Source: Phormidesmis sp. (GTDB lineage Bacteria > Cyanobacteriota > Cyanobacteriia > Leptolyngbyales > Leptolyngbyaceae). Taken from it: a DNA stretch of 64,000 nucleotides. Location of the stretch: the NCBI GenBank assembly GCA_965248535.1, contig CBDFJR010000005.1, positions 1,888,001 through 1,952,000 on the forward strand. Reading direction: 5' to 3'. The position numbers and the translations under genes are program-made. Shown one piece after another: positions 45,608 to 62,900 of this stretch; position 1 is the first letter of the stretch; every line of letters starts with the position of its first letter. The notes beneath the pieces were generated by a model. The model saw nothing but the letters and a program-made list of their open reading frames with translations. It did not search any database and was not told the DNA's origin.

Positions 45608-45745
45608 ACTCGATATCTTGAATGACCTCGACTAGGGCACGATCGGACGCGCTGGCAGCAGTCTTTCATTTTAGCTTGTGCGCCTAATCTTTCTAAAACA
45701 GAAACCCTGATCTATTATCGATCTTTAAACAGACCTAAACCTCTC

Positions 45746-47425
45746 ATGTCCTATTTCCCTGAGAATGCCTTAATTATTCAAAGCGATCGCTCTGTTCTCC
45801 TGGAAGTTCACTCGCCTAGAGCGAATGCGGCCCGAGAAGCGATCGCGCCCTTTACCGAACTCGTTAAAAGTCCTGAACACATTCACACTTATAAGATCAC
45901 GCCTCTCAGCGTGTGGAATGCACGAGCCGCCGGAATGCCCGTAGATGAGATGATCGCGGCTCTGCAAGATCACGCTAAATATCCCATGCCCGATGCCGTC
46001 ACCCAGGAAATTGAAGCTTTGGGCAAGCGGTATGGATTAACCGTGATTGAGCGATCGGACGATGAGATTCATCTCTTGCTGAGAACGGCTGATCTGCCCC
46101 TTGCGGAACTGTTGTCTCGCAACGATGATGTGGCTCCGCTGCTGGCAGAGCGTTTGAATGACTGCTTATTTCAAGTCGATGCCGGGTTTCGAGGGCTGCT
46201 CAAACAAGCGCTGTTAGCGGCAGGCTATCCGGCTGAAGATTTAGCGGGCTATGTGACGGGCGACGCTTTGACGATCGAGCTTCGGCGCGTTAGTCGATCG
46301 GGCGCACCGTTTGAGTTGCGCGATTATCAAGAAGCCGCCGCCGATGCGTTTTATCAGGCGGGTCGGGTGCAAGGTGGAAGCGGCGTGATCGTGCTGCCCT
46401 GCGGGGCTGGCAAGACGATGGTGGGCATGGCGGCGATGCTGGCGGTGCAAGAAAACACGCTGGTGCTGACGAGTAGCCTCACCTCGGTTCGGCAATGGCG
46501 ACGCGAATTGCTCGATAAAACCACGCTTTCAGAAGACTCGATCGCTGAATACAGTGGCGAGAGCAAAAACACGGCTCCGGTTACGCTAGCGACCTATCAG
46601 ATTCTCACCTATCGGTCTCAAAAAGATCAGCAGCAGCCTCACTTTGAGTTGTTCAACGCCCGATCGTGGGGCTTAATTATCTACGATGAAGTTCACCTAT
46701 TGCCTGCTCCGGTGTTTCGGGCTACGGCCGAGCTTCAAGCCCGTCGTCGGTTAGGATTGACTGCCACGCTGATCCGGGAAGATGGGCGAGAAGGAGACGT
46801 GTTTGCGCTGATCGGGCCAAAACGCTATGACGTGCCCTGGCGAGAATTGGAAGGACAGGGATTCATCGCCGCCGCCGAATGCACCGAGATTCGGGTGCCG
46901 CAGGATGCAGAAGAGCAAATGAATTATGCGATCGCGCCCAAACGCCAACAGTTTCGCATCGCCGCCGAAAATCCGCGCAAGTTGACAATGATTAAAGAGT
47001 TGCTAGAAAAAGAAGCCGGACATCGGATTTTGATCATTGGCGAATATATTGAACAATTAGAAAAAGTTGCCCACTTAACAAGATTGCCTTTGATCACGGG
47101 TAAAACTTCTCAACGGGAACGCGATCGCCGCTATGAACAGTTTCGCCATCAGCAAATTGATGGATTGATCCTGTCGCGAGTGGGCAACTTTGCGCTAGAT
47201 TTGCCCGATGCTGACGTGCTGATCCAAATATCTGGAAAGTATGGATCTCGTCAAGAAGAAGCCCAACGTTTGGGGCGAGTGTTGCGTCCCAAATCGGATG
47301 GTCGCGTTGCCCAGTTTTATTCGCTGGTGTCGCTGCGAACCTGTGAAGAAGAATTTGCCCGTCATCGGCAGCTATTTTTAGCCGAGCAAGGCTACAGTTA
47401 TCAGATTCAAGTTTTAGAAGAATAG
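45746..47425 (+). CDS. XPB/Ssl2-like DNA repair helicase
   Basis: 'ELVKSPEHIHTY', 'LPCGAGKT', 'DEVH', 'TAT', 'QEEAQRLGRVLRPK'. Confidence 0.92.
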   Translation: MSYFPENALIIQSDRSVLLEVHSPRANAAREAIAPFTELVKSPEHIHTYKITPLSVWNARAAGMPVDEMIAALQDHAKYPMPDAVTQEIEALGKRYGLTVIERSDDEIHLLLRTADLPLAELLSRNDDVAPLLAERLNDCLFQVDAGFRGLLKQALLAAGYPAEDLAGYVTGDALTIELRRVSRSGAPFELRDYQEAAADAFYQAGRVQGGSGVIVLPCGAGKTMVGMAAMLAVQENTLVLTSSLTSVRQWRRELLDKTTLSEDSIAEYSGESKNTAPVTLATYQILTYRSQKDQQQPHFELFNARSWGLIIYDEVHLLPAPVFRATAELQARRRLGLTATLIREDGREGDVFALIGPKRYDVPWRELEGQGFIAAAECTEIRVPQDAEEQMNYAIAPKRQQFRIAAENPRKLTMIKELLEKEAGHRILIIGEYIEQLEKVAHLTRLPLITGKTSQRERDRRYEQFRHQQIDGLILSRVGNFALDLPDADVLIQISGKYGSRQEEAQRLGRVLRPKSDGRVAQFYSLVSLRTCEEEFARHRQLFLAEQGYSYQIQVLEE

Positions 47426-47430
47426 TGGCA

Positions 47431-49083
47431 TCAAAACGGAGTCTCTAGAGTTAGCCGCAGTGCTTGTTTAGACTGCGGATGCTCAAAGCTCAGTTCTCTC
47501 GCGTGAAGACATAAGCGATCGCTACTCCCCTTTCCATAAAGACGATCGCCCACAATCGATACCCCCAAACCCGCTACTGCGTGGACTCGAATTTGATGCG
47601 TCCGTCCGGTGACTGGCGAGAATTCCATTCGCGTTAAATTTCCGGTTCGCACCAGCACTTTGAAGTGAGTCACGCTGGGCTTTCCGCGCTGACGATCGAC
47701 GGTTTGAACAGGTCGATTTTGCGGGTCTCCCCACAGGGGCAGGTCAATCACTCCCCGGTCTTGCGCCACCGCCCCGTTGAGCATTGCTTCGTAGATTTTG
47801 TGAACTTGACGCTGCTGAAATTGCTGACTGAGGTGGCGATAGGTTTGACGATCGCGGGCCAAGACCAAAATTCCAGAAGTGTCTTGATCGAGCCGATGCA
47901 CAGCCATCAGAGAGTCGCCATCCGGTAATAAATGCCGAAGCTGACTTAAAACGCTGTCTTGAGTATCCCGATAACGACCCGGAACTGAGAGCAATCCAGA
48001 GGGTTTGTTGACCACAATTAGCCATTGATCTTCATAGAGAATCGGTAGTGGTTGAGTGATGGGTACGATCGCTTCTTTTTGCGGCAATCCTGATAGCAAA
48101 AAGCCCATTAATGGCTGACAGCGCTCTAGACAAGCACCATAAAATTCTCCCTGAATCTTATGTTCACTGATTGAATCAGCCCCGTACCAAAACTCAGCCA
48201 TTGCTAACGGTTTGAGATGACAAGTTGCTGCATAATGCAACAGTTTTGGAGCACAGCAATCTCCGGTTCCCGTTGGCATTGAGCCGCTAGGCATTAACTG
48301 CTGAAGCGACAGAGATTTTCCAGCAAAATTAGTCAGTGAGTAATGGGCGTGCATCTGAGCTTGAAGTTGACGAGACACCTCTTTACGCTGTTGTTTTAAT
48401 TGCTGAATCCGGCTATCTGCTTGCTCAAGGAAAGATTTAAGCGGCTGCAATTCTGCATCTCGTTGACGTTTGAAGTGTCGGCGATCGCGGCCATCTTGAC
48501 GGCTTTGATCATCCAGTTTTTCAAGCTCTATTTCTAACATTTCTCCCGCAAGAAATTCTAGAAGCCTCTGACGTTGATGTTGTCGTTCCTCCTTGAGTTG
48601 ATGGTGCTGAAAAGTAATGTGCTGGAATTGAGTTTGAGATGCTTTTAGTTGCAATTCATAGCGCGATCGCTCCGGCAAGTTCTGTAAACCAATTAGTTCT
48701 TGCTTAATCGATTCTAAAATTGCTAAAGCATGAGCCTCTTCAAAAGCAACGCGATCGCGTCCTGGAATTGGCGGCACCCATCCCTCAACGATACCATTTC
48801 CGTTCAGCAACCCAGAAAACGCCTTGAGAACTCGCTGTTCGCCGCTAGAAGTCTCAACCAGCAGCACACCATACATTTTGCCTTCTTGAAACGTGTCCAG
48901 CGATCGCATCAAGCCTTTGGCGATCGCTTCTACAAACAAAGTGCGCGGCAGTCGCAATCGTTGACTACTTTGAGGGCAATTACCCTCATACCAATAAGTA
49001 GCTAAATCGTTGACTATGCAATTCTGTTCAACAAAATCTAAAGGAATATGAAGACTTACCTCATTAGATCCAGGGGTCATCAT
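47431..49083 (-). CDS. RluA-family pseudouridine synthase, long form
   Basis: 'NKPSGLLSVPG', 'HRLDQDTSG', 'TGRTHQIRVH', 'LHA'. Confidence 0.92.
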   Translation of the reverse strand: MMTPGSNEVSLHIPLDFVEQNCIVNDLATYWYEGNCPQSSQRLRLPRTLFVEAIAKGLMRSLDTFQEGKMYGVLLVETSSGEQRVLKAFSGLLNGNGIVEGWVPPIPGRDRVAFEEAHALAILESIKQELIGLQNLPERSRYELQLKASQTQFQHITFQHHQLKEERQHQRQRLLEFLAGEMLEIELEKLDDQSRQDGRDRRHFKRQRDAELQPLKSFLEQADSRIQQLKQQRKEVSRQLQAQMHAHYSLTNFAGKSLSLQQLMPSGSMPTGTGDCCAPKLLHYAATCHLKPLAMAEFWYGADSISEHKIQGEFYGACLERCQPLMGFLLSGLPQKEAIVPITQPLPILYEDQWLIVVNKPSGLLSVPGRYRDTQDSVLSQLRHLLPDGDSLMAVHRLDQDTSGILVLARDRQTYRHLSQQFQQRQVHKIYEAMLNGAVAQDRGVIDLPLWGDPQNRPVQTVDRQRGKPSVTHFKVLVRTGNLTRMEFSPVTGRTHQIRVHAVAGLGVSIVGDRLYGKGSSDRLCLHARELSFEHPQSKQALRLTLETPF

Positions 49084-50035
49084 CGTCTTCTAAATCTTCA
49101 TCTTTCAAGGGTTGATTTTGAGAATTGGTGGATGGTTGAATAAGCGCCTCATTCTCCCGATCCTCTAATTTGTCAGTAGAAGATTGGACACTTATTTTAT
49201 CTACCACAGGTTGATCCTGAACATTCACCGTTGGCTGAATAAAATCTTCATCGTCCCAATCTTCTAGAGGGTCAAGTTCAGTTGATTCAGGAGGCTCGAT
49301 CGTGACTTTCGATTCATCCCATTGCTCAACCACATCATAGGTTCTTTCTTTGACTTGTTCCGCTAAAGCCTGAGCTTTTTCTCTGGCTTGTTCTGCCAAG
49401 ATCTGCGCCCGTTCTCTGGCGGTTCCTGTAGCAGTTTTAGCTTGGTTAAATAATGATCGTAGCTCTTGAGTCACCTGACTTTTTTCGTCTTGCAAGAAGT
49501 CCGTCATTTTCGTCAGCTTCTCTTGAATGCCTTCTCGATAAAGGGCAAACGATCGCACCGCCTCTTCAGACACTAACACTCGTCTATTTCCAATCTTCAA
49601 AACATAATTAGATGGCAATAAATAGGCGCTTCCGGTGATGCCACTCCAATCACTCGTGATGAATAAATAATGCTCAATTTCTCCGGTTCTCAGATTGAAC
49701 AAATAATCGATAATTTTCCCAGCTTTATTTCCGTCATCTGTCCAAACTTCCCAATTCACCAATGTCTCAAGCTGCCGAACTTTCTCAACATCGGTGTCAA
49801 CGGGTCTAGAGTTAACGAGAATGCCATTGCCCCCGATCGTGTGCAGTTGATCCAAATTAAACGCCGTTTTTTTCTGCCCTAGCCAGCCCGACTTGCAGAT
49901 AAACCCCAACACTCGATGCACTTTGGGATACATCCACAGCACTTCAACCTGCCCTAACTCCGCCATCGTGGAGCGATTGAGGACAAACTGATTCAACAAT
50001 TCACTCTGTCTAACAACCTCTGGTTGCTGCGCCAT
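49064..50035 (-). CDS. PRC-barrel domain protein
   Basis: Two PRC-like repeats and an acidic tail ending 'DDDPWI'. Confidence 0.75.
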   Translation of the reverse strand: MAQQPEVVRQSELLNQFVLNRSTMAELGQVEVLWMYPKVHRVLGFICKSGWLGQKKTAFNLDQLHTIGGNGILVNSRPVDTDVEKVRQLETLVNWEVWTDDGNKAGKIIDYLFNLRTGEIEHYLFITSDWSGITGSAYLLPSNYVLKIGNRRVLVSEEAVRSFALYREGIQEKLTKMTDFLQDEKSQVTQELRSLFNQAKTATGTARERAQILAEQAREKAQALAEQVKERTYDVVEQWDESKVTIEPPESTELDPLEDWDDEDFIQPTVNVQDQPVVDKISVQSSTDKLEDRENEALIQPSTNSQNQPLKDEDLEDDDDPWI

Positions 50036-50113
50036 ACAAATTTAGACACCGTAAAGTCTTGCCTCTAGTGTATCTTGCCACCCCTAAAATTAAGACGCTA
50101 GATGTCAAAATGG

Positions 50114-50143
50114 TTGACAGAGCCTGTTCTGATTTGGCATACT
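50114..50143 (+). promoter_or_regulatory. Sigma70-type promoter of rplU-rpmA
   Basis: TTGACA-N18-CATACT with TG upstream of the -10. Confidence 0.55.
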
Positions 50144-50241
50144 AGTTGACTGGCTGTCTATCCCTGCTCGGATCAGGTCGGACACTCGAAAAGCGGGATT
50201 TTTCCGCTACCTGTACGGCAACTTTATCAAGGACAATTTTC

Positions 50242-50598
50242 ATGACTGCATACGCAATTATCGAAGCGAGTGGCACTCAGATGCGCGTAGAGCCAGGCCG
50301 GTTCTATGATGTCAATCGCCTCGCAGATGAAGTCGATTCACAACTGACGCTCGATCGGGTTCTGTTTATCAGAAACGAAGGCGACATCACCGTGGGCCAA
50401 CCTCTGGTGGAAGGTGCAACGGTTCAGGCAACGGTGCTCAGACATCTGCGAGGTCGCAAGATTATCGTCTACAAGATGCAGCCCAAGAAAAAGACCCGCA
50501 AAAAGCAAGGTCACCGTCAAGAACTGACTCGCATTATGATCGACTCCATCAGCCTCAACGGGGCGGTGGTTGATTCTAAAGAGCAACCCAGAGGCTAA
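50242..50598 (+). CDS. rplU: 50S ribosomal protein L21
   Basis: 'YAIIEASG', '[14 protein letters not shown]'. Confidence 0.97.
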
Positions 50599-50653
50599 AC
50601 CTCTCTGGGGTGAAGGCTTTTAACTGAAATCTACAGAAACTGTTGAGGAAATT

Positions 50654-50947
50654 ATGGCTCACAAGAAAGGTACAGGCAGTACTCGTAACGGTCGCGACTC
50701 TAACGCTCAACGTCTAGGAGTCAAGCGCTACGGCGGGCAAGTCGTTCTCGCGGGCAACATTCTAGTTCGTCAGCGTGGCACCAAAATTCATCCCGGCAAC
50801 AATGTCGGTCGCGGCAGCGATGACACCCTGTTTGCGCTCATCCCTGGCGTTGTCACCTTTGAACCGATGACCAAAGGTCGCAAAAAAGTCAGTGTCTACG
50901 CAAAAGTTGAAGCGGCTCAACCTGTTGAAGTGGCTCAACCTGTTTAA
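50654..50947 (+). CDS. rpmA: 50S ribosomal protein L27
   Basis: '[16 protein letters not shown]'. Confidence 0.99.
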
Positions 50948-50968
50948 TCGACTTCTAAATAGATTGAT

Positions 50969-50995
50969 AAGCTGCTCACAAGGGGCAGCTTTTTT
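50969..50995 (+). terminator. Rho-independent terminator after rpmA
   Basis: AAGCTGCTC-loop-GGGCAGCTT followed by a T run. Confidence 0.8.
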
Positions 50996-51035
50996 ATGAG
51001 GTGACTGGCAGATTATTCTCCCAGAATTTAGTCAT

Positions 51036-51071
51036 CCTTTACAGTTCGTAATCACTCTAGTGAGCGATCGC
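51036..51071 (+). repeat. 36-bp direct repeat, left copy
   Basis: CCTTTACAGTTCGTAATCACTCTAGTGAGCGATCGC, identical to 54894-54929. Confidence 0.95.
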
Positions 51072-51275
51072 TAGAGATGCTGCACTACGGTAGAGGACAA
51101 AACGAGTGGGTTCGGCATCAAGAATACTGGCGATTAAGGCGACAGCTTGGGTTTCTTGCTCAAAAGCTTGGCGCGCCAATTGTGTAGCCTTCTCTAGAGC
51201 ACCTCTTAAACGAGCGACTACTGCGGCTTCGGCTAAATCCATTGCTTGTTGGTGGAGCACTTGAATCTGGCTCAT
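51057..51275 (-). pseudogene. Cassette-borne helical hypothetical protein, probably 3'-truncated
   Basis: Begins 46 bp past the attC core; its last codons and stop lie inside the 36-bp repeat. Confidence 0.55.
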
Positions 51276-51320
51276 TGGGGTATGCCATTTTGAACTCTTT
51301 GAGACATGGATTGAATGGCG

Positions 51321-52100
51321 ATCTAACGGCTAAAGTGAGCGGCGGCAAGAGGACTAGAACGAAGCGCAAAGGCTATGTATCGTCCGCTCCACTATGTGTC
51401 CGCCCAGCATGGGCGTGAACTAATGGGGTGAAAGTCCCCTGTCGGAGAACCAACGTCCAAAGGAACCCGAAAGTTCCGAGTGACGACAACGACTAGCTTA
51501 AGGCAAGGGCGTTTCCGCGAGGAAGGGTCTGAAGGAAGCTGGAGGCAAACCTGCGAACTGACGGACAGAAACGTCATAGAAGGCTAAGATTCCCGTGGCG
51601 AGTGAGCACAACATCACAAAGCCTTTTGGTTCAGGGAACATAGTAAATGACGCGGTTGTGCAGGGACATTCACGGTCTTATCTGGGGAGATCTGCTCAAA
51701 GGGCGGTTTGGGATTTTATGGGAGTCGGACTGAGGGCGATTTGGAAACGAATCGACAACCCACCGAACCCTACGGAAACCTAAGCAGCGCGTCTAGCGGC
51801 AACGCTAGAGGTAATTGAGCAGAAGTCAGCAGAAGCCATAGTAGCCAAATGCTCATCGTCATGGGTGAGACAGGGTGAAGGGCTGAACGTCAGAGAGCAG
51901 GGAGGAGCCGTAAAGCTCGACGGGGCGATGAACCCGGATGGGGGAGCTAACTTGTCGGCGCTTAATTGCGTCACCAGCCCTGGACATCAATTCTTTGGAG
52001 TTGAAGGGTCTAAACCTCTTTGAGGAAGCGCCCCGTGCGGAGCCGCACGCGGGGTGCTGTGGGAGCGGGGGGAGAAAATCCCCTTGCTACCCGATTAGAC
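51321..52100 (-). other. Integron attC site (about 82-84 bp when rejoined), split by a group II intron
   Basis: Minus strand rejoined: R'' GTCTAAC, L'' AGTGGAGCGG (one extra base), L' CCGCTCACT, R' GTTAGAT. Confidence 0.85.
51398..52095 (+). mobile_element. ORF-less group IIC (attC-targeting) intron, about 698 nt
   Basis: 5' GTCCGCCCAGCATGGGCG; domain V GAAGCGCCCCGTGCGGAGCCGCACGCGGGGTGCTGT; domain VI ending ACCCGAT; no RT ORF; 5' end may be 51398 or 51400. Confidence 0.9.
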
Positions 52101-52149
52101 GCCGTCAGTTACGCAGAATTCCCTGAGTACATGCACGGTATTGGTGCTA

Positions 52150-52818
52150 TTAATCAATAATTACCCTAAAGGTCAAATTGATTCTCGGTTCTACCTTTCT
52201 AGATGTTTTTGGAATTTGATGCTGCCAGAAATGCTGAGTCTCACCAGCCATCAGAAGAAAACTACCATGTGTTAGCTCAACTTCCGCCTTCAGATCTTGG
52301 TCTTGCCTATGCCGAAACATAAATCTTCTTGCTCCTCCGAAACTGACAGAGCCAATTACAGGATTTTCACCTAATTCTGGCTCTGCATCTGTGTGCCAAG
52401 AGATACCATCATTTCCATGACGATAGAGATTCAGCAAAACGCTGTTGAACTCAACCTCTGAAACCTCTTCAATACGCTGCTTCACTTGCAGCAATGTTGG
52501 TGTCCAAGGTTCAGGATCGAGGTGAATACCTGAGAAGGTGTACGATTTATCCTGATCACCATACCAAGCAGTCTTTCGCGGCAAATTGATCTCTTTGCCA
52601 TAAAGCTTCATCTTGTCTTGCCGCCAGTTAATCTCATTCAGCAAGATCTGGAAAATTTCGTTGCTTCTTTGCGAGTCGAAAAAGTTTCGGTAGAAAATAA
52701 CCTTTGCGTCTGGCATAGGTAGGACTTCTCTGACTAATTCATCCTCGGCACTTGTGACCGACTCAAAACCGGAGAACAAGTCCCCTTGAGAAACATTTAC
52801 GGCAGACTTCCTTCTCAT
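52150..52818 (-). CDS. AlkB-family (ALKBH2/3-like) 2OG-Fe(II) dioxygenase
   Basis: 'PRKTAWYGD', 'FNSVLLNLYR.GND...WHTDAE', 'WQHQIPK', 'RINLTFR'. Confidence 0.92.
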   Translation of the reverse strand: MRRKSAVNVSQGDLFSGFESVTSAEDELVREVLPMPDAKVIFYRNFFDSQRSNEIFQILLNEINWRQDKMKLYGKEINLPRKTAWYGDQDKSYTFSGIHLDPEPWTPTLLQVKQRIEEVSEVEFNSVLLNLYRHGNDGISWHTDAEPELGENPVIGSVSFGGARRFMFRHRQDQDLKAEVELTHGSFLLMAGETQHFWQHQIPKTSRKVEPRINLTFRVIID

Positions 52819-52830
52819 AAAGACTTTTCC

Positions 52831-53637
52831 TCAGCTTTGAATCAGGTTCACAGTGAATTGCCTCTCGCATACACCTATTCTACGCTCTTCATACCTTCCG
52901 GTTTTGAAGTAGAACACTTTTTTATAAATCGGCTCCTCAGAAACCACTGAGTTGTAAATTCGACCGGACTGCGAGAACAAGTCATAGAAGTTACTTAATC
53001 TATATCTACGATCGTTATCTGGACTTGTGCAGATAAATCGATTTAAGCCTCGAAAGGAACCAATTATCAACTCGTGTAATTCGTCTAAACTAAACGCTTC
53101 TACATCAATAATGTTTGAGAAAAGGTGAACCTTGATGCTATCCATATCAGAAATCAAATCGCTAGGTTGCAAGTCATCTATGTACTTACTAATTCTACGT
53201 ATGGTAGGAGTAGCATAGGCTTCAGATTGAAGCATTTGACAAGCGAGGTTGTAACCGCGCTCCAACGCTGTAAGCGAAGGCTCTACAAGCGTAATCGAGA
53301 CTACTTCGGGCTTGAGCTTACTCTCGATGAAGTAGTCAATCAAAACACAGGTCGCCAATGCTTGACCACATCCCCAGTCAATGATCTCCAATTTTTTGCC
53401 GTCAGTATAGTGAAAATTAGTTGAGGCAAAGGCTGCATAAAGTTTGTGAAAATGATGCCCACCGTAAAACGCTACATACTGGTCGCATTTTGCCTCGCTA
53501 TCCAACACTGCCGTACCATTAGCTAAAGCACTGAGAACATTTTGAACATTTTGTATATTCTTGCACTTTTCTATGCAGGGCTTGTAGATGCCATCGATAA
53601 ATCTCATGATCCCTTCTTCTGAGTTCGAGATGTTCAT
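52831..53637 (-). CDS. Class I SAM-dependent methyltransferase-like protein
   Basis: 'IIDWGCGQA' motif I, 'TLVEPS', 'HLFSNIIDV'. Confidence 0.6.
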   Translation of the reverse strand: MNISNSEEGIMRFIDGIYKPCIEKCKNIQNVQNVLSALANGTAVLDSEAKCDQYVAFYGGHHFHKLYAAFASTNFHYTDGKKLEIIDWGCGQALATCVLIDYFIESKLKPEVVSITLVEPSLTALERGYNLACQMLQSEAYATPTIRRISKYIDDLQPSDLISDMDSIKVHLFSNIIDVEAFSLDELHELIIGSFRGLNRFICTSPDNDRRYRLSNFYDLFSQSGRIYNSVVSEEPIYKKVFYFKTGRYEERRIGVCERQFTVNLIQS

Positions 53638-53786
53638 GTAGAAGGCTCAAAAAATGTAAGACTTCTATCGGCTAGACTGCCCAAGCTACCTTCTAGATTA
53701 AACAATTACTTCAGTGATGGTTCTCCAGATTCTCAAATGTCAGGATTGCACAAGGCTGAAGTGGCAATCTCACCAACAACTCAGGC

Positions 53787-53950
53787 GTATAACTACTATT
53801 TCTGCCGTTTGAACTCCTATCAAACAGGATAAATGCCTCTCTCAGAGAAATTATGCCGTATGGAAACCGGATAACTCCCATTTTTTTAGGAATCATCCTG
53901 AATTCTCACAGGATAACTCTCCACTTTCGGGTAATTATACGGAATGGCGC
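53787..53950 (-). other. Cassette entry core site (GTTATAC) plus three 42-bp-periodic dyad sites
   Basis: GGATAA at 53827/53869/53911; inverted T(T/C)AT.C at 53851/53893/53935. Confidence 0.7.
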
Positions 53951-54072
53951 TCAGGTTTTTCGATTCTAAGGGAGCCGCGAGTAAATTGTCTCGTTCCGAT
54001 GAATCAGTCATGGCGCTGAGTCGATCGAGTCCCTGCCGTTGCTCGACTGGAACATAAATTAGGGAGAGTTTA

Positions 54073-54125
54073 CGATCGCCCCCCCTCTTCCACAAAACCC
54101 GATCGCTTCCCTCCCCCACAAAAAT
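54073..54125. repeat. Two imperfect 27-bp tandem units (CGATCGC...CCACAAAA)
   Basis: Seen directly. Confidence 0.5.
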
Positions 54126-54394
54126 CACCATTCCAAAAAACAAAAAACTCTAGTACAATACACCGCAGTGATGGAGTTATGCCCCGAAGCCTGATCTACC
54201 AAATCAGACTCCGAGGACTTCCATCCCTAGTTACCGACTAGTAACTTAGGAGGCGTTCATGATTGTACACCGACAGCTTTGCTATGGGATCTTGAAAGGC
54301 TGGAATCAAGATCCTGCATACAGATTTCCCCCCAACCCAATGTCTGAGAGATCCGTGTTTTTGTCCTCTTTGAATTAATCGAGAGGACAAAACT

Positions 54395-54766
54395 ATGGGA
54401 GTTAGGACGATCGTGCCTAGCTCGATTTCGTTCACCGTTGAGTTACGTTGCTCAATCGAAAAGCGTTATCGAGTCAGTGTTATTTTGGATTTGCAAGAGC
54501 GTTATATTTTCATTCCCTCTGGTGTTATCTCAGACATTAGTGATGTCATTGAAGAGTTTGTGTCTCAGTTAAGTGAGATCGCGTCTAATCAACTGGCATT
54601 CTTGAAATGGGACGGTACGAGTGATTTAACGACGGAGTATCAGATTGTTCGAGTGTTGCCGGGATATCAAGTTGAGCGATCGTTAGCAAAGTTCAACATT
54701 GTCATCGGCAGTGGTTCACTGATTCAAGTGGAGGAGTTGCACGACAAAATCATCATTCAACTCTAG
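54395..54766 (+). CDS. Hypothetical protein
   Basis: 123-aa ORF with GAGGA RBS, inside the island. Confidence 0.6.
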   Translation: MGVRTIVPSSISFTVELRCSIEKRYRVSVILDLQERYIFIPSGVISDISDVIEEFVSQLSEIASNQLAFLKWDGTSDLTTEYQIVRVLPGYQVERSLAKFNIVIGSGSLIQVEELHDKIIIQL

Positions 54767-54893
54767 ATAAAGGGAACGATCGCGAAATTACCTTTTTGAA
54801 GGCTGACCGAAATTAAGCGATCGTTCCTTAATCATCTGAAGGGCTAACATTTTAGATTGAATAGGATGAATCCTCGATCTCATTCCTAATCAC

Positions 54894-54929
54894 CCTTTAC
54901 AGTTCGTAATCACTCTAGTGAGCGATCGC
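54894..54929 (+). repeat. 36-bp direct repeat, right copy
   Basis: Identical to 51036-51071. Confidence 0.95.
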
Positions 54930-54989
54930 ACTCCTGAAAGTTTTAGACTTTATAAGATATCGCCAACATTAGCCAGCTATATCAGCCCT

Positions 54990-55979
54990 ATGTTTCCAAC
55001 TCACCGCCCTCGCCGCCTGCGTGCTCATCCTCAACTGCGCCGGATGGTGCGTGAGACTGTGTTGACTACCAGTGACTTGATCTATCCCTTGTTTGCGGTT
55101 CCGGGTGAGGCGATCGCCAAAGAAGTTCGCTCAATGCCGGGGGTGTTTCAACTCTCGATCGACAAAATCGTTGAAGAAGCTAAAGAAGTCTACGATTTGG
55201 GCATTCCGTCAATTATTTTGTTTGGCATTCCGGCGGATAAAGACACGGATGCAACGGGTGCCTGGCACGATTGCGGCATGATTCAAAAAGCGGCAACGGC
55301 CGTGAAGGAAGCGGTTCCCGATCTGATCGTGATTGCAGACACTTGCCTGTGTGAATATACGCCCCACGGTCACTGTGGTTATCTCGAAGTCGGCGACTTA
55401 TCCGGGCGAGTGCTCAACGACCCAACGTTAGAACTGCTCAAAAAAACGGCGGTTTCTCAAGCCAAAGCAGGTGCTGATATCATTGCGCCTTCTGGCATGA
55501 TGGATGGCTTTGTGCAAGCGGTGCGACAGGGGCTAGACGAAGCAGGATTTCACGATACGCCGATCATGTCTTATGCGGCAAAATATGCGTCCGCCTATTA
55601 TGGGCCATTTCGAGATGCAGCCGAATCGGCTCCTCAGTTTGGCGATCGCCGCACCTACCAAATGGACCCCGGCAACGCTCGTGAAGCGATTAAAGAAATC
55701 GAACTCGATATTGCCGAAGGCGCAGATATGCTGATGGTCAAGCCAGCGCTGTCTTATATGGATGTGATTTATCGCGTCAAGGAAGCGACGAATTTGCCTG
55801 TCGCGGCCTATAACGTGTCGGGCGAATATGCGATGGTAAAGGCCGCTGCCCTCAACGGCTGGATCGATGAAGAGCGCATCGTTCTGGAAACGCTGACCAG
55901 CTTTAAACGGGCAGGTGCAGATTTAATTCTTACCTACCATGCTAAAGATGCGGCTCGTTGGTTGGCTGCTCAGGCTTAA
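54990..55979 (+). CDS. hemB: Porphobilinogen synthase
   Basis: '[11 protein letters not shown]', '[12 protein letters not shown]', 'MVKPA'. Confidence 0.98.
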
Positions 55980-56039
55980 ACGCTAAACTTTCAGACCTGA
56001 ACTCTCCAACAATTCTTTTTTGCTGGAGGGTTTCAGCTT

Positions 56040-56908
56040 CTAGCCTAGACCCAAATGTTGACGCAGAGCGTGGCGCATCGTCTCAACTGGGACAGACTGC
56101 TGTGTCCAGATCTTAAGAGCGATCGCCCCTTGTTGAATCAGCATTTCTAACCCGTCGATCGCGACTCCACCCCGATCGCTAACCTGCTTTAAAAACATTG
56201 TCGGGTTGGGCGTGTAGATCAAGTCATAGGCGATGATCCCCGGTTGATGGCTTTTAGCTGATCAACTTCCGACACCGTGAGGGGAGATTGATCAGCGTGA
56301 GGAGACATTCCGATCGGGGTCGCGTTCACCAATAAATCTGCACGGGGTAATAACTGGGGTAGTGTCTCCCAACCGTGAACGGTTAACCCTAGGGAAGCCT
56401 TCCAACTTTGCAAAAACGCGGCTAGCTTTTGGGCATCTCGCCCGACAATGTGAACTTCAGCACAGCCTAATTCTAGACATCCGGCGACAACGGCTCTAGC
56501 GGCTCCCCCGTTTCCTAAAATCACCGCGACCGATTGACTCCAATCTTGCTGCCGCGATCGCAGCGGCGCTAAAAATCCTTCCGCATCTGTATTGGTGCCG
56601 CTCCAGCCTTTTTGGGTTCGCCAAACCGTATTGACCGCCCCGATCGCCTGCGCTACGTCAGAGATTTCATCCAGCAGGGGCATAATCGTCTGCTTGTGGG
56701 GAATGGTGATGCTAAACCCCTGGATGCCGATCGCGGCAAATCCCTGAATCGCTTGGGCTAAATTTTCGGGCGCGATCGCAAAGGGCAGATATACAAAATC
56801 TGCGCCCATCTCCGCCAGAGCCGCATTGTGCATGATGGGCGAAAGCGAGTGCCCGATCGGGTGCCCAATCACGCCCAGCAGCTTCGTTTTTCCGGTGATT
56901 TGCGTCAT
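56040..56908 (-). pseudogene. aroE: Shikimate dehydrogenase, frameshifted near 56245-56256
   Basis: 'HSLSP.MHN', 'TIPHK', 'GAVNT', 'NTD', 'NATPIG' in one frame; 'AYDLIYTPNPT...DGLEMLIQQG' in another. Confidence 0.9.
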
Positions 56909-58218
56909 GGCTCCGGGTTCAAATAACCCCGGACTCGAAACATCACAGAGTTGGCGTGAGACGGTAACCCTTCAGCCTTGGCCAAAACATCGATCGCATT
57001 GGCGGCTTTTTGCAGCGCGATCGGAGAATATTGCACCAGACTAGAGTGTTTCAAAAAGGTCTCAACGCCCAGAGGTGAGGCATATCGAGCCGACCCCGAC
57101 GTGGGTAATGTGTGGTTAGGCCCTGCCAAATAATCGCCCACCGCTTCAGGAGTTGAGCTTCCTAAGAAGATCGCGCCTGCGTGACGAATATTTTGCAGCA
57201 ACGCCCAGGGATCATCCACTTCCAGTTCTAAATGTTCGGGGGCAAAGTCGTTTGAAAGCTCGGCGGCGGCTTCTAAAGAATCGACGATCGCCACCAAACC
57301 ATAGTGAGCGATCGATTTCTCAGTTAAAGTTCTTCGCGGATGATCCATCAACTGTCGCTCGACCTCATCCACCACTTTTCGCGCTAGCGCTGAGTCAGTC
57401 GTCAACAAAATAGCGGCGGCCATTGGATCGTGCTCTGCTTGCGCTAGCAAATCTGCCGCAATATAGACCGGGTTGGCGGTTTCATCGGCAATAATCAGCA
57501 CCTCAGACGGGCCTGCCAGCGAATCAATACCAACGGTTCCGTAGACCAGTTTTTTAGCCAGCGTCACATAGATGTTGCCGGGGCCCGTGATCACATCTAC
57601 TTTGGGAATGGTTTCTGTGCCATAGGCTAAAGCCGCGATCGCTTGGGCACCCCCGACTCGATAGATCTCGTGCACTCCTGCTTCTTGAGCCGCCACCAAA
57701 ACCGCCGCATTAATTGCCTTGTCTTTGCCGGGTGGGGTCACCATGACAATGCGAGGCACCTGAGCGACTTTGGCCGGAACGGCATTCATCAAGACCGTGC
57801 TGGGATAGCAGGCCAAACCACCGGGGACGTATAGCCCAGCCCGATCAACGGGCGTATAGCGCTTGCCCAAAACAATTTCGTCTTCACCGAAGTGAACCCA
57901 ACTTTTGGGCACTCGCTGTCGATGAAAGGCCTCAATTTGCTGCCGAGCTTGCTGAATGGCCATAAGAAGCTCTTTAGAGACCTGCTGATAAGCGGCATCA
58001 AGCTCAGAACCACTGACTCGCAGTTCTTCAGGCTTAATTTTTTGGTGATCGAACTCTAGGGTGTAATCTAACACCGCTCGATCTCCGAGTCGCTTAACCG
58101 CTTGCAGCACCTCCCGAACCGTCGCTTCTTTGTGAACAACCTGGTCGTCGTGAGTGCGATCGCAAATTCGTCGCAGTTCAGTTTTAGCCTCAGTCCACTG
58201 AGTGATGATTCGCAACAT
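56905..58218 (-). CDS. hisD: Histidinol dehydrogenase
   Basis: 'GPGNIYV', 'AGPSE', 'AQAEHD', 'APEHLE', 'GPNHTLPT'. Confidence 0.98.
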   Translation of the reverse strand: MLRIITQWTEAKTELRRICDRTHDDQVVHKEATVREVLQAVKRLGDRAVLDYTLEFDHQKIKPEELRVSGSELDAAYQQVSKELLMAIQQARQQIEAFHRQRVPKSWVHFGEDEIVLGKRYTPVDRAGLYVPGGLACYPSTVLMNAVPAKVAQVPRIVMVTPPGKDKAINAAVLVAAQEAGVHEIYRVGGAQAIAALAYGTETIPKVDVITGPGNIYVTLAKKLVYGTVGIDSLAGPSEVLIIADETANPVYIAADLLAQAEHDPMAAAILLTTDSALARKVVDEVERQLMDHPRRTLTEKSIAHYGLVAIVDSLEAAAELSNDFAPEHLELEVDDPWALLQNIRHAGAIFLGSSTPEAVGDYLAGPNHTLPTSGSARYASPLGVETFLKHSSLVQYSPIALQKAANAIDVLAKAEGLPSHANSVMFRVRGYLNPEP

Positions 58219-58432
58219 GGAGTGTAGAAGTGTCAGACTTGAGATAACCCGTCTAGAAAAAGGGCTTGAACCGTCCTAGCAACCTTGCCAATGCTAGATA
58301 AACCCTATCTTCGTTACTTTAGCTTAACCCGGATTTTTAGAGGTGTATGTGATCGTCCAGATGTTAATGCTATAGTAATTTGTCTAGCGATTCTTGTGTC
58401 CAATAATAGTTAAAGTTCTTCTAGGATTTACT

Positions 58433-58729
58433 GTGGCAAATATTAAATCCGCGATCAAACGCGTTGAAATTGCAGAACGGAACCGTCTCCGTAACAAAGC
58501 ATACAAGTCAGCCGTCCGGACGCTGATGAAAAAGTGCATGGCAGCCGCAGACACCTACGCGGCTAAACCGTCTCCAGAGACCTTAGCGGTGGTCAACACG
58601 ACTCTCTCTTCCGCCTTCAGCAAGATTGACAAAGCGGTGAAGCGTGGAGTCTTGCACCCAAACACGGGTGCCCGCCGAAAATCTCGTCTGTCTAGAGAAG
58701 TCAAAAAGCAAACGGCTCCCGTGTCCTAG
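58433..58729 (+). CDS. rpsT: 30S ribosomal protein S20
   Basis: GTG start, 'ANIKSAIKR', '[13 protein letters not shown]'. Confidence 0.98.
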
Positions 58730-58786
58730 CAGAGTTGCTAAAGCTCCACTGAGGTCGATGATTTTAGGTTTGTCTTGAAGGCGTTC

Positions 58787-59599
58787 ATGCAACTGATTGA
58801 CACCCATGTTCACATCAACTTTGAGGCGTTTAAGCCAGACTTAGAGGCGATCGCGGCTCGTTGGCGAGAAGCAGGACTTGTTCACCTTGTCCACTCTTGT
58901 GTCGAACCTGCCGAATTTGCTGAGATTCAGGCGCTTGCCGATCGCTTCCCTGAGCTTTCCTTCGCCGTGGGGTTACATCCCCTAGACGTTGAAGAAAAGT
59001 GGGTAGAAAGCTCTTCTCAGCAGATTCTTGACTTAGCCAAGTCTGATCCGCGAGTCGTGGCGATCGGGGAAATGGGCCTAGATTTCTTCAAGGCAGACAA
59101 CCGAGCGCAGCAGATCAAGGCGTTTGAGGCGCAGCTTGCGATCGCTCAACACCTCGACTTGCCAGTGATTATTCACTGTAGAGAGGCTGCAAAGCCGATG
59201 GCAGACTTGCTGCGTCGCTTCTGTCAGCAGGGCGGCTCAGTCCGAGGGGTGATGCACTGTTGGGGCGGCACTCCTGAAGAAACACAGTGGTTTCTAGATC
59301 TGGGTTTCTACATCAGTTTCAGTGGCACAGTGACGTTCAAAAAAGCTCTTCAGATTCAAGAATCTGCAAAAATGGTGCCCAGCGATCGTCTCCTGATCGA
59401 AACAGATTGCCCCTTTCTATCGCCCGTTCCCAAACGGGGTGAAAAGCGCAATGAGCCATCTTACGTGCAATACGTGGCTCAACAGGTGGCTCGATTAAGA
59501 GAAACTCCCGTTGAGCAACTAGCTGCCCAAACGACTCAAAACGCTTGCCAACTGTTTGGCTTGACGATTTCTCAGCCCTGTCTTTCTCCCTCAACCTAG
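58787..59599 (+). CDS. tatD: TatD family DNase
   Basis: 'DTHVH', 'GLHP', 'AIGE.GLD', 'HCR', 'ETDCPFL'. Confidence 0.93.
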
Positions 59600-59936
59600 G
59601 TGAGCGAGGTTTGGATCTCACAAATTTGTTGATTCGTCAACCCACAAAACCAATTTGCTGCGCCATAATGTTAGAGAGTGCAAATCATGGCTCATGAACA
59701 GGACTTTCTACCAGGTTTTATGTTCCTCAGTAAAACTTGAATCTGTCAGACGCTCACCTAAATCACCCACCGATTGTTGGAAGAATTGGAAACGAAGCGA
59801 GCAACCAACAACTCACAATTAAATATCCAGGCTTTTGGATTCCTTTCAGGTTTCCAAACTTTTTTGCATTGACCTATTTGTGCAAATAGTATAAAATTCA
59901 GGGTTCGCGCTGGGCGTGACCCTTCTGAGGAGACGC

Positions 59937-62900
59937 ATGACTGAGCAGACATACACCACCCCCGCCTTTGTTTTGCCGGATCTGGTCGAAATTCAACGGG
60001 CTAGCTTTCGCTGGTTTCTTGAAGAAGGCTTGATCGAAGAACTCGACAGCTTTTCACCGATTACTGACTATACAGGCAAGCTTGAGCTTCACTTTTTAGG
60101 CAAAGACTTCAAGCTGAAGCGCCCTAAATATGACGTTGACGAGGCCAAGCGCCGCGACAGCACCTACGCCGTGCAAATGTATGTGCCCACTCGCCTGATC
60201 AATAAAGAGACGGGAGAAATCAAAGAGCAAGAAGTCTTTATTGGCGATTTGCCCCTGATGACCGATCGCGGCACCTTTATCATCAACGGTGCTGAACGAG
60301 TGATTGTCAATCAGATCGTTCGTAGCCCCGGTGTTTACTACAAGTCAGAAACCGACAAAAACGGACGACGCACCTATAATGCCAGCTTGATCCCTAACCG
60401 CGGTGCGTGGCTCAAGTTCGAGACCGATAAAAACGATCTGGTCTGGGTGCGGATTGATAAAACTCGCAAGCTCTCTGCTCAAGTTTTGCTGAAGGCCTTA
60501 GGGTTAAGTGATGGCGAGATTTTTGACGCGCTGCGTCACCCTGAATATTTTCAGAAAACGATCGAGAAAGAAGGTCAGTTTGGCGAAGAAGAAGCGCTGA
60601 TGGAGCTTTACCGCAAACTTCGTCCCGGTGAGCCTCCTACGGTCTCTGGCGGTGCTCAACTTCTAGAGTCTCGTTTCTTTGATCCCAAACGCTACGACTT
60701 GGGCAAAGTAGGACGCTATAAGCTGAACAAAAAGCTTCGCCTCAACGTTCCTGAAGGGGTGCGGGTGCTGACTCCGCAAGATATCTTGTCGGCAATCGAC
60801 TATTTGATCAACCTAGAGTTCGACACGGGAAGTATTGACGATATTGACCACTTAGGCAACCGTCGAGTGCGATCGGTGGGTGAGCTTTTGCAAAACCAGG
60901 TGCGAGTCGGTCTAAACCGCCTAGAGAGAATTATCCGAGAACGCATGACGGTCTCGGATGCTGACTCCCTAACTCCGGCTTCATTAGTCAACCCAAAACC
61001 ACTGGTAGCTGCAATCAAGGAGTTTTTTGGCTCTTCTCAGCTATCGCAGTTTATGGATCAGACCAACCCACTCGCAGAGTTAACCCACAAGCGGCGCATC
61101 AGTGCGCTTGGCCCGGGTGGTTTGACACGAGAACGGGCAGGCTTTGCAGTTCGAGACATTCACCCCTCTCACTACGGGCGAATCTGCCCCATTGAGACTC
61201 CTGAAGGCCCCAACGCAGGTCTGATTGGTTCGTTGGCCACTCACGCTCGTGTGAACGCCTACGGATTCATTGAGACCCCTTACTACGCTGTCGAAAACGG
61301 TCGGGTTGTAAAGGAGAATGCTCCAATCTACATGACGGCCGACGAGGAAGACGATCTGCGGGTTGCCGCAGGTGACATCACGATGGATGAAAACGGCTAC
61401 ATCATCAGCGAAGAGGTGGCCGTTCGCTATCGGCAAGACTTCACGGTTGCCACCCCTCAAGAGGTGGACTACGTAGCGATTTCTCCGGTGCAAATCATCT
61501 CGGTGGCAACGTCGCTGATTCCCTTTTTAGAGCACGATGACGCAAACCGAGCGCTCATGGGGTCAAACATGCAGCGTCAGGCGGTGCCTCTGCTGCGCCC
61601 TGAGCGTCCTTTAGTCGGAACTGGCTTAGAAGCGCAGGCGGCTCGTGACTCTGGGATGGTGGTTGTGAGCCGCACCGATGGCGAAGTCACCTTTGTTGAT
61701 GCCGATCGTATCCGGGTTCGCGATCCTCAAAGTGGCAAAGATATTAGCTACGCTTTGCAGAAATATCAGCGATCGAACCAAGATACTTGTCTAAACCAAC
61801 GCCCGATCGTATTTGTGGGCGACAAAGTGATCGCGGGTCAAATTCTAGCAGATGGCTCGGCCACTGAAAAAGGCGAACTGGCCCTCGGTCAAAACATTCT
61901 CGTGGCCTATATGCCGTGGGAAGGCTACAACTATGAGGACGCGATTCTGATCAGTGAACGCCTAGTTCAAGAAGACGTTTACACCTCCATCCACGTTGAA
62001 AAATTTGAAATTGAGGCCCGTCAAACCAAGCTAGGGCCCGAAGAAATCACCCGTGAAATTCCCAACGTTGGTGAAGATGCCCTGCGGCAGCTAGACGAGA
62101 CAGGCATTATTCGCATCGGGGCGTGGGTCGAGTCAGGTGACATTCTCGTCGGCAAAGTGACTCCCAAAGGAGAATCTGATCAGCCTCCTGAAGAGAAACT
62201 ACTGCGCGCCATTTTTGGTGAGAAAGCTAGAGACGTGCGAGACAATTCCCTGCGGGTGCCCAACGGTGAAAAAGGTCGGATTGTTGATGTGCGCGTGTTC
62301 ACTCGTGAGCAAGGCGACGAACTGCCGCCAGGCGCTAACATGGTCGTTCGCGTTTATGTGGCCCAGAAGCGCAAAATCCAGGTCGGAGACAAGATGGCGG
62401 GTCGTCACGGCAACAAAGGGATTATTTCTCGGATTTTGCCGATCGAAGACATGCCCTATCTCCCCGATGGCAAGCCCGTTGACATTGTGCTCAACCCGCT
62501 AGGGGTGCCGAGCCGGATGAACGTCGGTCAAGTCTATGAGTGTCTGTTAGGCTGGGCGGCTGAAAATCTGAACGTTCGCTTCAAGGTGGTGCCATTTGAC
62601 GAAATGCACGGGGAAGAGAAGTCTAGAGAAACCGTCCACGACAAGATCAGCGAGGCGCAAGACAAGCGGATTAAGTCAACGGGTGGGCAAGACGGCTACT
62701 GGCTGTTTAACCCCGACAACCCTGGCAAGATTCAGGTCTATGACGGGCGGACAGGAGAAGCCTTCGATCGTCCGGTGACCGTCGGCAAAGCCTATATGCT
62801 GAAGCTGGTTCACCTAGTTGACGACAAGATTCACGCTCGTTCGACGGGGCCTTATTCTCTGGTGACTCAGCAACCCTTGGGTGGCAAAGCTCAACAGGGT

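Follow-up and report, generated by a model that had tools for sequence, protein, structure and literature searches.

A repeat-bounded island between rpmA and hemB of Phormidesmis: a probable integron array fragment joined inside HIP1

Clusters of attC sites lacking integron-integrases (CALINs) are defined by two or more attC sites lying close together. Rearrangements that split an array and integration at secondary sites are among the origins given for them by Cury et al. (2016, PMC4889954), where integrons are also recorded in Cyanobacteria. The group IIC-attC introns are described (Leon et al. 2010, PMC3001079; PMC7923331) as sitting in the attC bottom strand at TTGT/T, opposite to cassette transcription, and as occurring in CALINs too. 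The highly iterated palindrome HIP1 has been linked to site-specific recombination of plasmids, to illegitimate recombination and to excision (Elhai 2015, PMC4390886), and is reported to increase recombination in transformation (bioRxiv 10.1101/2024.09.10.611283). Those cases of illegitimate recombination at HIP1 that are cited in PMC4390886 (Robinson et al. 1997, Akiyama et al. 1998) come from plasmids or cloned constructs. Here we describe a 3.9-kb island between rpmA and hemB of Phormidesmis sp. (assembly GCA_965248535.1, contig CBDFJR010000005.1). It lies in a stretch of 64,000 nucleotides (nt; positions 1,888,001 to 1,952,000 of the forward strand), hereafter the window, to which coordinates without a prefix refer. 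Each of its parts is of a known kind: a fragment of a CALIN-type array, an intron in attC and a rearrangement linked to HIP1. We favour, as rather probable, the reading that the island is the head fragment of a chromosomal integron array, placed there by a crossover of one HIP1 with another and by homologous exchange with an empty allele.

The island is bounded by two identical 36-mers whose starts are 3858 bp apart (Table 1). The match between them extends to 40 nt with one mismatch and to 43 nt with two. Both copies contain a TCACT-CT-AGTGA dyad and close with HIP1, GCGATCGC (51064-51071 and 54922-54929). Coordinates, spacing, dyad and HIP1 end were all reproduced as the earlier note, made from the sequence of the window, had given them. 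Two matches to the 36-mer never arose when the window was shuffled 100 times by dinucleotides. A search of the whole genome (5.03 Mb, 5 contigs) that allowed up to three mismatches returned exactly two copies, and the pair is therefore no dispersed multi-copy repeat, a matter that the earlier note had raised. The left copy lies 3′ of the rpmA terminator. The right copy lies 61 nt 5′ of the likely hemB ATG (54990), which agrees with the start of the open reading frame (ORF) in a metagenome contig, L053.

The locus was compared with that of seven other genomes of the genus (G001-G007, G000 being the present one), with L053 and with a glacier metagenome run, X4. Two of the seven genomes were unreadable at the locus: G004 gave no match (it is 88% complete), and in G005 the contig ends 25 nt past the repeat. 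In G001, G003, G006 and G007, rplU-rpmA is followed by the terminator, a variable spacer of about 44 nt (S1), one repeat and hemB. The rpmA terminator hairpin is found in all four of these empty sites, and none of the four has a match to our attC profile. In G002 an ORF of 123 codons (orf123), a tail segment, S1, the repeat and hemB stand in this order at the start of a contig, and rpmA is on another contig with other DNA after it. In L053, rpmA and hemB are 2.9 kb apart and the right junction is as in the island. In both G002 and L053, attC sites and cassettes set in immediately 3′ of the rpmA stop, and the repeat is present as a single copy. Contigs of X4 contain the junction orf123-tail-S1R-repeat-hemB, S1R being the spacer at the right end of the island, as well as the two-gene cassette described below. 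These same-genus and metagenome comparisons thus show the rpmA-hemB locus in two forms, 'empty' and 'array-bearing'. A single repeat between rpmA and hemB, as the earlier note had expected of close relatives, was seen in four of the five same-genus genomes that could be read (seven examined, two unreadable).

Within the repeat, a 19-nt core, CCTTTACAGTTCGTAATCA (51036-51054 and 54894-54912), is invariant in 6 of the 7 aligned sequences, with G001 one base short. This core is constant 5′ of hemB while the neighbouring sequence varies. Homology with a genome of another genus (G009) begins at the repeat. The core is probably a regulatory element of hemB; it has no match in Rfam. Metagenomes scanned with an 18-nt core yielded 6 loci, of which L053 was the sole one to match the window. 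The same scan of a genome collection gave 7 loci with one match each (3 in unrelated bacteria, 4 cyanobacterial), which were left uncounted, since they may be the same genomes as those compared above.

At its left end the island cuts a gene. The truncated ORF is identical to an intact 129-amino-acid (aa) ORF of G002 at 63 of 70 residues (90%). This family comprises 840 proteins at E<=0.001, and nearly all of the 120 listed are 128-132 aa long. DNA homology to the intact G002 gene spans 51065-51282 and ends inside the terminal GCGATCGC of the repeat. The last 7 nt of the repeat, CGATCGC, occur in all three aligned sequences (left junction, right copy, intact gene of G002), which differ to one side of it or the other. 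The end of the hemB upstream element is here joined to a CGATCGC that lies within the following cassette gene. As far as alignments can show, the left junction is a crossover at a microhomology of 7 nt, the HIP1 core, with no mobile element's own integrase involved. Here a suggestion of the earlier note, duplication by HIP1-associated illegitimate recombination, has gained support at the left junction through its CGATCGC microhomology with the intact G002 gene, while the integron content and the intron had gone unseen. In the genome as a whole HIP1 has 5135 copies, or 1.02 per kb. This is about 65-fold more than expected, and the octamers take up 0.8% of the bases.

The left repeat copy is itself composite. 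The spacers that precede the two copies (S1L and S1R) agree at only 27 of 44 positions, whereas the 43-mers that follow them are identical at 41 of 43 (Fisher p 1.6e-4). S1L is likewise distant from the relatives (25-30/44 identity, G003 nearest). At the end of the left repeat, 17 sites are variable; there the left copy differs from the right copy at none, from G002 and L053 at one, and from the empty-site genomes at 4-7. Moreover, both copies have a C (CACTCT) where G002, L053 and G006 have a G. With the spacers diverged and the repeats near-identical, the left repeat copy is therefore chimeric. Judged by sequence, it is a mosaic, of the empty type as far as 51035 and of the array type from 51055 or earlier, which places the crossover in the invariant 19-nt core. 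The right copy aligns to the empty sites over about 82 nt, from the T-run of the terminator through HIP1. Both repeats are copies of native sequence upstream of hemB and not attachment sites.

Read on the minus strand from hemB to rpmA, the island consists of a platform module, a two-gene cassette, an attC invaded by an intron and, last, the beginning of the following cassette gene. The attC lies directly 3′ of the AlkB-like gene of the cassette and is the single match in the window to our profile (nhmmer, 68.4 bits, E 2.4e-20). This profile, which is not the covariance model of IntegronFinder, was built from 11 seed sequences, 8 of them picked next to introns, and finds 34 attC-like sites genome-wide. 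The cores of the island site are ATCTAAC and GT/TAGAC. Family members, as seen in the intron-upstream sequences and three intron-less sites, are laid out as a TAAC core, GAGCGGCGG, a variable centre, CCGTCCGCTC and GTTGT/TAG, and their folds are canonical, with hairpins of R-box, unpaired spacer and L-box and with bulged bases. The platform module, about 980 nt long, has a (C)TAAC core at its left edge, includes orf123 and, by position, tends to be found at the head of arrays. There are 17 copies of orf123 in the genome (besides that of the island, for example C5:1069506, C5:42630 and C2:1130917, where C2 and C5 are contigs), and 11 of the 17 have a same-strand attC match within 10 kb upstream, against a random expectation of 0.03 per copy. 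One copy is directly 3′ of intI. Two complete intI genes, 68% identical to each other, are present in the genome (C2:1131581-1132543, minus strand, and C2:161466-162425, plus strand), and one of the two proteins scores 466 bits to TIGR02249, for which the cut-off is 265.

The island resembles a CALIN in that its attC has R and L boxes, its cassette genes are co-oriented, and intI is elsewhere in the genome and not in the segment. It departs from one in having one attC only, a 17-copy orf123 module at its head and a distal cut in HIP1 instead of attC. In the array-bearing relatives, attC matches follow the rpmA stop of G002 and recur after a toxin-antitoxin-like pair; L053 has two, and L020 has at least two. 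With one attC in the window and at least two at the same locus in L020 and L053, the island is a fragment of an array.

The sequence of events that we favour has two steps. In the first, two HIP1 sites 3858 bp apart in an array-bearing chromosome would have undergone an illegitimate crossover, either between sister or sibling copies of the chromosome or by way of a circle, so that 3858 bp were present as a tandem copy or in circular form. This would have placed a copy of spacer plus repeat before the truncated gene. In the second, an empty-site allele would have taken part in a homologous exchange whose right crossover fell within the invariant 19 nt. That exchange would have set rpmA, its terminator and S1L before that copy, with loss of the distal cassettes. 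Either lineage may have been the resident and the other the incoming one. The island shares with the published HIP1 cases a crossover inside the GCGATCGC / CGATCG palindrome and the rearrangement of non-homologous DNA. It differs from them in that the junction is natural and chromosomal, with an intergenic region of housekeeping genes on one side and an integron cassette on the other, and in being deduced by comparison only. The island has no mobility of its own. A RecA-type crossover between the 36-43-nt repeats could, we infer, delete it and restore the rpmA-hemB junction. Geometrically, the earlier note was right to predict such a junction from a single crossover.

Several points weigh against this account. 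It requires two events, and a single event with gene conversion fits nearly as well. The left junction is present in this assembly alone, and an intermediate with the intact 129-aa gene beside the AlkB-like cassette was not found among the compared sequences, the G002 gene being on another contig in another context. The G002 site reads TCGATCGC, which is not a full HIP1, and the length of the microhomology, being taken from a 90%-identical orthologue, is uncertain by about one base. Nor is the donor of S1L among the sampled relatives (25-30/44 to each). Seeds biased towards introns build in part of the association of attC with orf123, and only 5 of the 11 attC-positive orf123 copies depend solely on matches outside the seed. 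Finally, the similarity between the TAAC end of the platform and the attI regions of the two complete integrons was insignificant (357-396 of 1000 shuffles reach the score), so it is position that supports the term 'array head'.

In the nearest rival, an empty-site chromosome recombined once with DNA that carried the array, and the last 36 nt of the two copies were then made equal by gene conversion or by repair of a heteroduplex. Such an event could have been a Campbell-type integration, through the repeat, of a circle closed at HIP1, or homology-facilitated illegitimate recombination anchored in hemB with its joint at HIP1. The latter is a feature of natural transformation, in which one homologous anchor is combined with a joint at a short G+C-rich microhomology; it is not known to have been demonstrated in cyanobacteria, and in its simple one-step form it leaves the identical last 36 nt of the two repeat copies unexplained. 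Without conversion, one of the two copies should have empty-type sites, yet 0 of the 17 sites differ, where array-bearing and empty relatives are 4-7/17 apart. A single event predicts the same HIP1 junction as the two-step account and agrees with the difference between the spacer alleles (27/44). Identity to G002 and L053 is 93-97% at 54620-55020 and 83-93% deeper in hemB, which suits an incoming array haplotype, although the profile shows no sharp step. HIP1 is also reported to aid the integration of transforming DNA (bioRxiv 10.1101/2024.09.10.611283). We regard a single event as possible, with a fairly low probability.

The earlier note had offered an attL/attR-like scar as its other reading, and perfect direct repeats with a palindromic end and a 5-nt dyad do suggest one. 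Site-specific integration in trans, by IntI at a secondary site or by a HIP1-specific recombinase, would leave precise excision possible; IntI genes exist elsewhere in the genome, and HIP1-linked site-specific recombination of plasmids in Synechococcus PCC 7002 is cited in PMC4390886. As with the ends of prophages and genomic islands, the island is missing in relatives, empty sites have one copy of the repeat, and G+C is lower (0.39-0.48, with flanks of about 0.50-0.55). Unlike those, it has no integrase or tRNA target, one end lies in a broken gene, which is cut at codon 70 of 129, and the repeats are native flank. At the junction the 36-mer lacks an integron core of the GTT type, and it gave no match to the attC profile. 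It occurs nowhere else in the genome, and the homology of the right copy to empty sites extends about 45 nt past the repeat. The dyad is missing in each of the four empty sites, and G002 and L053 have it in imperfect form. Pfam found no integrase or transposase among 11 ORFs, NCBIfam no recombinase in the island ORFs, and a scan of 45000-60000 no tRNA, so the statement of the earlier note that none of the three is present stands, although it had overlooked the attC and the group II intron. The best tblastn match of the genome's own IntI to 51000-55000 had an E of 3.5, and no IntI remnant was found there. With a gene cut at the left end, no recombinase gene in the island and repeats that are native hemB upstream sequence, we consider attachment sites improbable. 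A target-site duplication by a transposase or a casposase-like staggered cut, which the flanking direct repeats might suggest, has next to no probability: there are no terminal inverted repeats and no transposase, the left end is a truncated gene, and the spacers upstream of the repeats are homologous too, but diverged. Target duplications of transposons are far shorter than 36-43 nt. No inverted repeats pairing the island ends were found. It is very improbable that the assembly is at fault, with a true site that is empty and a 3.86-kb unit, elsewhere or as a circle, threaded in through the 36-mer. Four public runs were compared as k = 31 contigs, which break at the 36-mer. Those of runs X1 and X2 do stop exactly at the repeat, leaving its sides unlinked, and exact-match contigs of the cassette have about half the depth of the flanks. 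Against this, the assembly has two contigs of about 2.45 Mb, from which reads far longer than 36 nt are probable; the right junction recurs independently in G002, L053 and X4; and the spacers beside the two copies differ, as expected of two real loci. A misread tandem repeat was rejected on account of the truncated gene and the diverged spacers.

If the favoured reading is correct, the locus holds a natural chromosomal crossover inside HIP1 that can be read at base level. What HIP1 does has been under debate for three decades, and most of what otherwise ties it to recombination comes from plasmids and constructs. It would also follow that an island bounded by repeats can mimic an integrated element and yet be the scar of recombination between empty and array haplotypes. 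Around it, in a polar genus of cyanobacteria, is an integron system that is unusually dispersed, with two IntI, about 34 attC-like sites, attC introns and a 17-copy platform. A bolder proposal, which we hold to be doubtful, is that HIP1 is a working natural recombination site that moves pieces of arrays, and that the orf123 modules are satellite platforms without an integrase, served by the two IntI in trans. Two HIP1 copies would then excise or duplicate the 3.86-kb array head, with re-entry through the 36-nt hemB upstream element. Were this true, the genome would hold a dispersed integron of at least 11 small arrays, HIP1 would have a role in gene flow, and orf123 might act in the capture or expression of cassettes, its leader being better conserved than the ORF.

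Table 1. Features of the rpmA-hemB locus, in coordinates of the window.
Feature	Position	Strand	Remarks
rpmA, ribosomal protein L27, left flank	50654..50947	+	ORF; kept beside rplU in relatives
rpmA intrinsic terminator, hairpin and T-run	50969..50997	+	terminator scan; stem 50969-50991
S1L, left copy of variable spacer	50985..51028		'empty-type' allele; 27/44 to S1R
Left repeat, 43-mer	51029..51071		exact 36-mer 51036-51071; ends in HIP1; chimeric
Truncated cassette gene	51057..51275	-	72-codon ORF; residues 1-70 of 129-aa family, then AH-stop read from repeat
attC, bottom strand on +	51314..52107	+	intron-split: 5′ part 51314-51397, remainder from 52096
ORF-less group II intron, ~700 nt	51396..52095	+	antisense to cassette genes; 5′ end 51396 or 51398
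Cassette gene 2, AlkB-family 2-oxoglutarate (2OG)-Fe(II) dioxygenase, ALKBH2/3-like	52150..52818	-	Pfam PF13532, E 9.8e-38
Cassette gene 1, 268 aa, class I S-adenosylmethionine methyltransferase-like (lead only)	52831..53637	-	ESM Atlas
Platform module, long form	53790..54766	+	conserved non-coding 53790-54394 (39-codon ORF 54259-54378) and orf123 54395-54766
Tail, unique to locus	54767..54847		HIP1-like hairpin 54773-54827; one copy in genome
S1R, right copy of variable spacer	54843..54886		array-type allele; 42/44 to G002
Right repeat, 43-mer	54887..54929		exact 36-mer 54894-54929; ends in HIP1; native hemB upstream element
hemB, porphobilinogen synthase, right flank	54990..55979	+	Pfam ALAD, E 3.5e-150

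The intron in the attC matches three Rfam families above their gathering thresholds (RF02001, 124 bits; RF01998, 60.2 bits; RF00029, domains V/VI, 49.3 bits). Seven further full-length copies, of 84-85% identity, are found in the genome. They are at C5:44911, C5:793636, C5:933032, C2:156853, C2:1133219, C2:1136162 and C2:609292, and the family occupies attC sites at GTTGT/T. A related intron with a frameshifted reverse-transcriptase ORF is at C2:1673015, and there is also one in G002:C53. At least 7 copies of 86-87% identity are found in G010. When the flanks of the introns are joined they read TTGT/T in 6 of 7 pairs, and those of the island's own intron read ATGT/T. The sequence GTTGT/T is present in 2 of the 3 intron-less sites of the genome and in the X4 site. 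This X4 site is an intron-less version of the island attC, with a joint of 51397 to 52095. The 5′ end of the island intron is GUCCG or GUGUC, which departs from GUGYG, and its 5′ exon is 3 nt short in comparison with the intron-less site of X4. The intron resembles the group IIC-attC introns in lying in the attC bottom strand, antisense to the cassettes, at a site of the TTGT/T type. It is unlike them in that the island copy has no reverse-transcriptase ORF, and the likeness is one of insertion site and orientation.

Seven long forms of the platform module start at an identical TAAC, beyond which the cassettes differ. The 3′ end of the module copies is fixed, and their 5′ ends vary from about -250 to -610. 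A leader of about 320 nt is more conserved in DNA (89-93% identity) than the orf123 ORF (80-84%), and contains the 39-codon ORF, which has a good ribosome-binding site. There are 407 homologues of orf123, and among the matches listed all those with a name are from Phormidesmis. For orf123, the 72-aa ORF and other small ORFs, searches of PADLOC, PHROGs and NCBIfam gave nothing, nor did the Atlas for orf123. Both intI genes have a conserved region of about 200 nt at their cassette side, and in the first of them 3-4 tandem repeats of about 47 nt lie between this region and intI.

At the other end of the array, the rpmA stop lies within a GGTYTAAC core, of RYYYAAC type (L053:3370-3390, L020:1880-1900 and the empty sites). 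Array-bearing relatives leave the empty-site sequence exactly after TAAC, and the ~55 nt from there to the T-run of the terminator are gone. The distal end of the array thus looks as if it had been formed at an integron secondary site. The tail that follows orf123 in the island is 93-97% identical in the array-bearing G002 and L053. As a relic of an ancestral rpmA 3′ flank or terminator, the tail (54767-54851) was rejected, since its likeness was insignificant (the score was equalled or exceeded in 71-396 of 500 shuffles). The T-run was taken as the point where the right copy starts.

Turning to the cassette genes, the AlkB-like protein also matches human ALKBH3 in the PDB (E 4.4e-40) and the C-terminal part of CARF_2OG in PADLOC (E 4.3e-57). 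The 268-aa protein has no sequence match in Pfam, NCBIfam or PDB. Its nearest ESM Atlas clusters are named methyltransferase (score 0.98), and as a lead only it may be class I methyltransferase-like. The two genes are syntenic in G003:C140 (L019 404-1850) and in X4. Together with their own attC they travel as one cassette in three sources, with 78-94% identity. A methyltransferase-like and an AlkB-like protein might form a modification-and-repair or a toxin-antidote-like pair. The depth of exact-match contigs at the cassette (52157-53730) is 10.3 in X1 and 21.9 in X2. In the flanks (50840-51065 and 54587-55200, covering rpmA, tail and hemB) it is 18.6-23.2 in X1 and 48.9-60.5 in X2; these are contig depths only. 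The halved depth could reflect mixed strains or chromosomes without the cassette. A joint of 52100 to 53790 in X1 (depth 4.4, side 24) does not match the predicted product of cassette excision and was not used.

The family of the truncated gene is 85-95% identical between distant cyanobacterial genera, with constant length. In G002:C53 (L025:927-1882) the 129-aa gene overlaps an upstream ORF of 189 aa, and an attC bearing an intron follows, which suggests that the two genes form a widely exchanged two-gene cassette. In the left flank, rpmA ends in a tandemly duplicated stretch of 18 nt (50906-50941), which adds 6 residues to L27 and is not shared by the aligned relatives.

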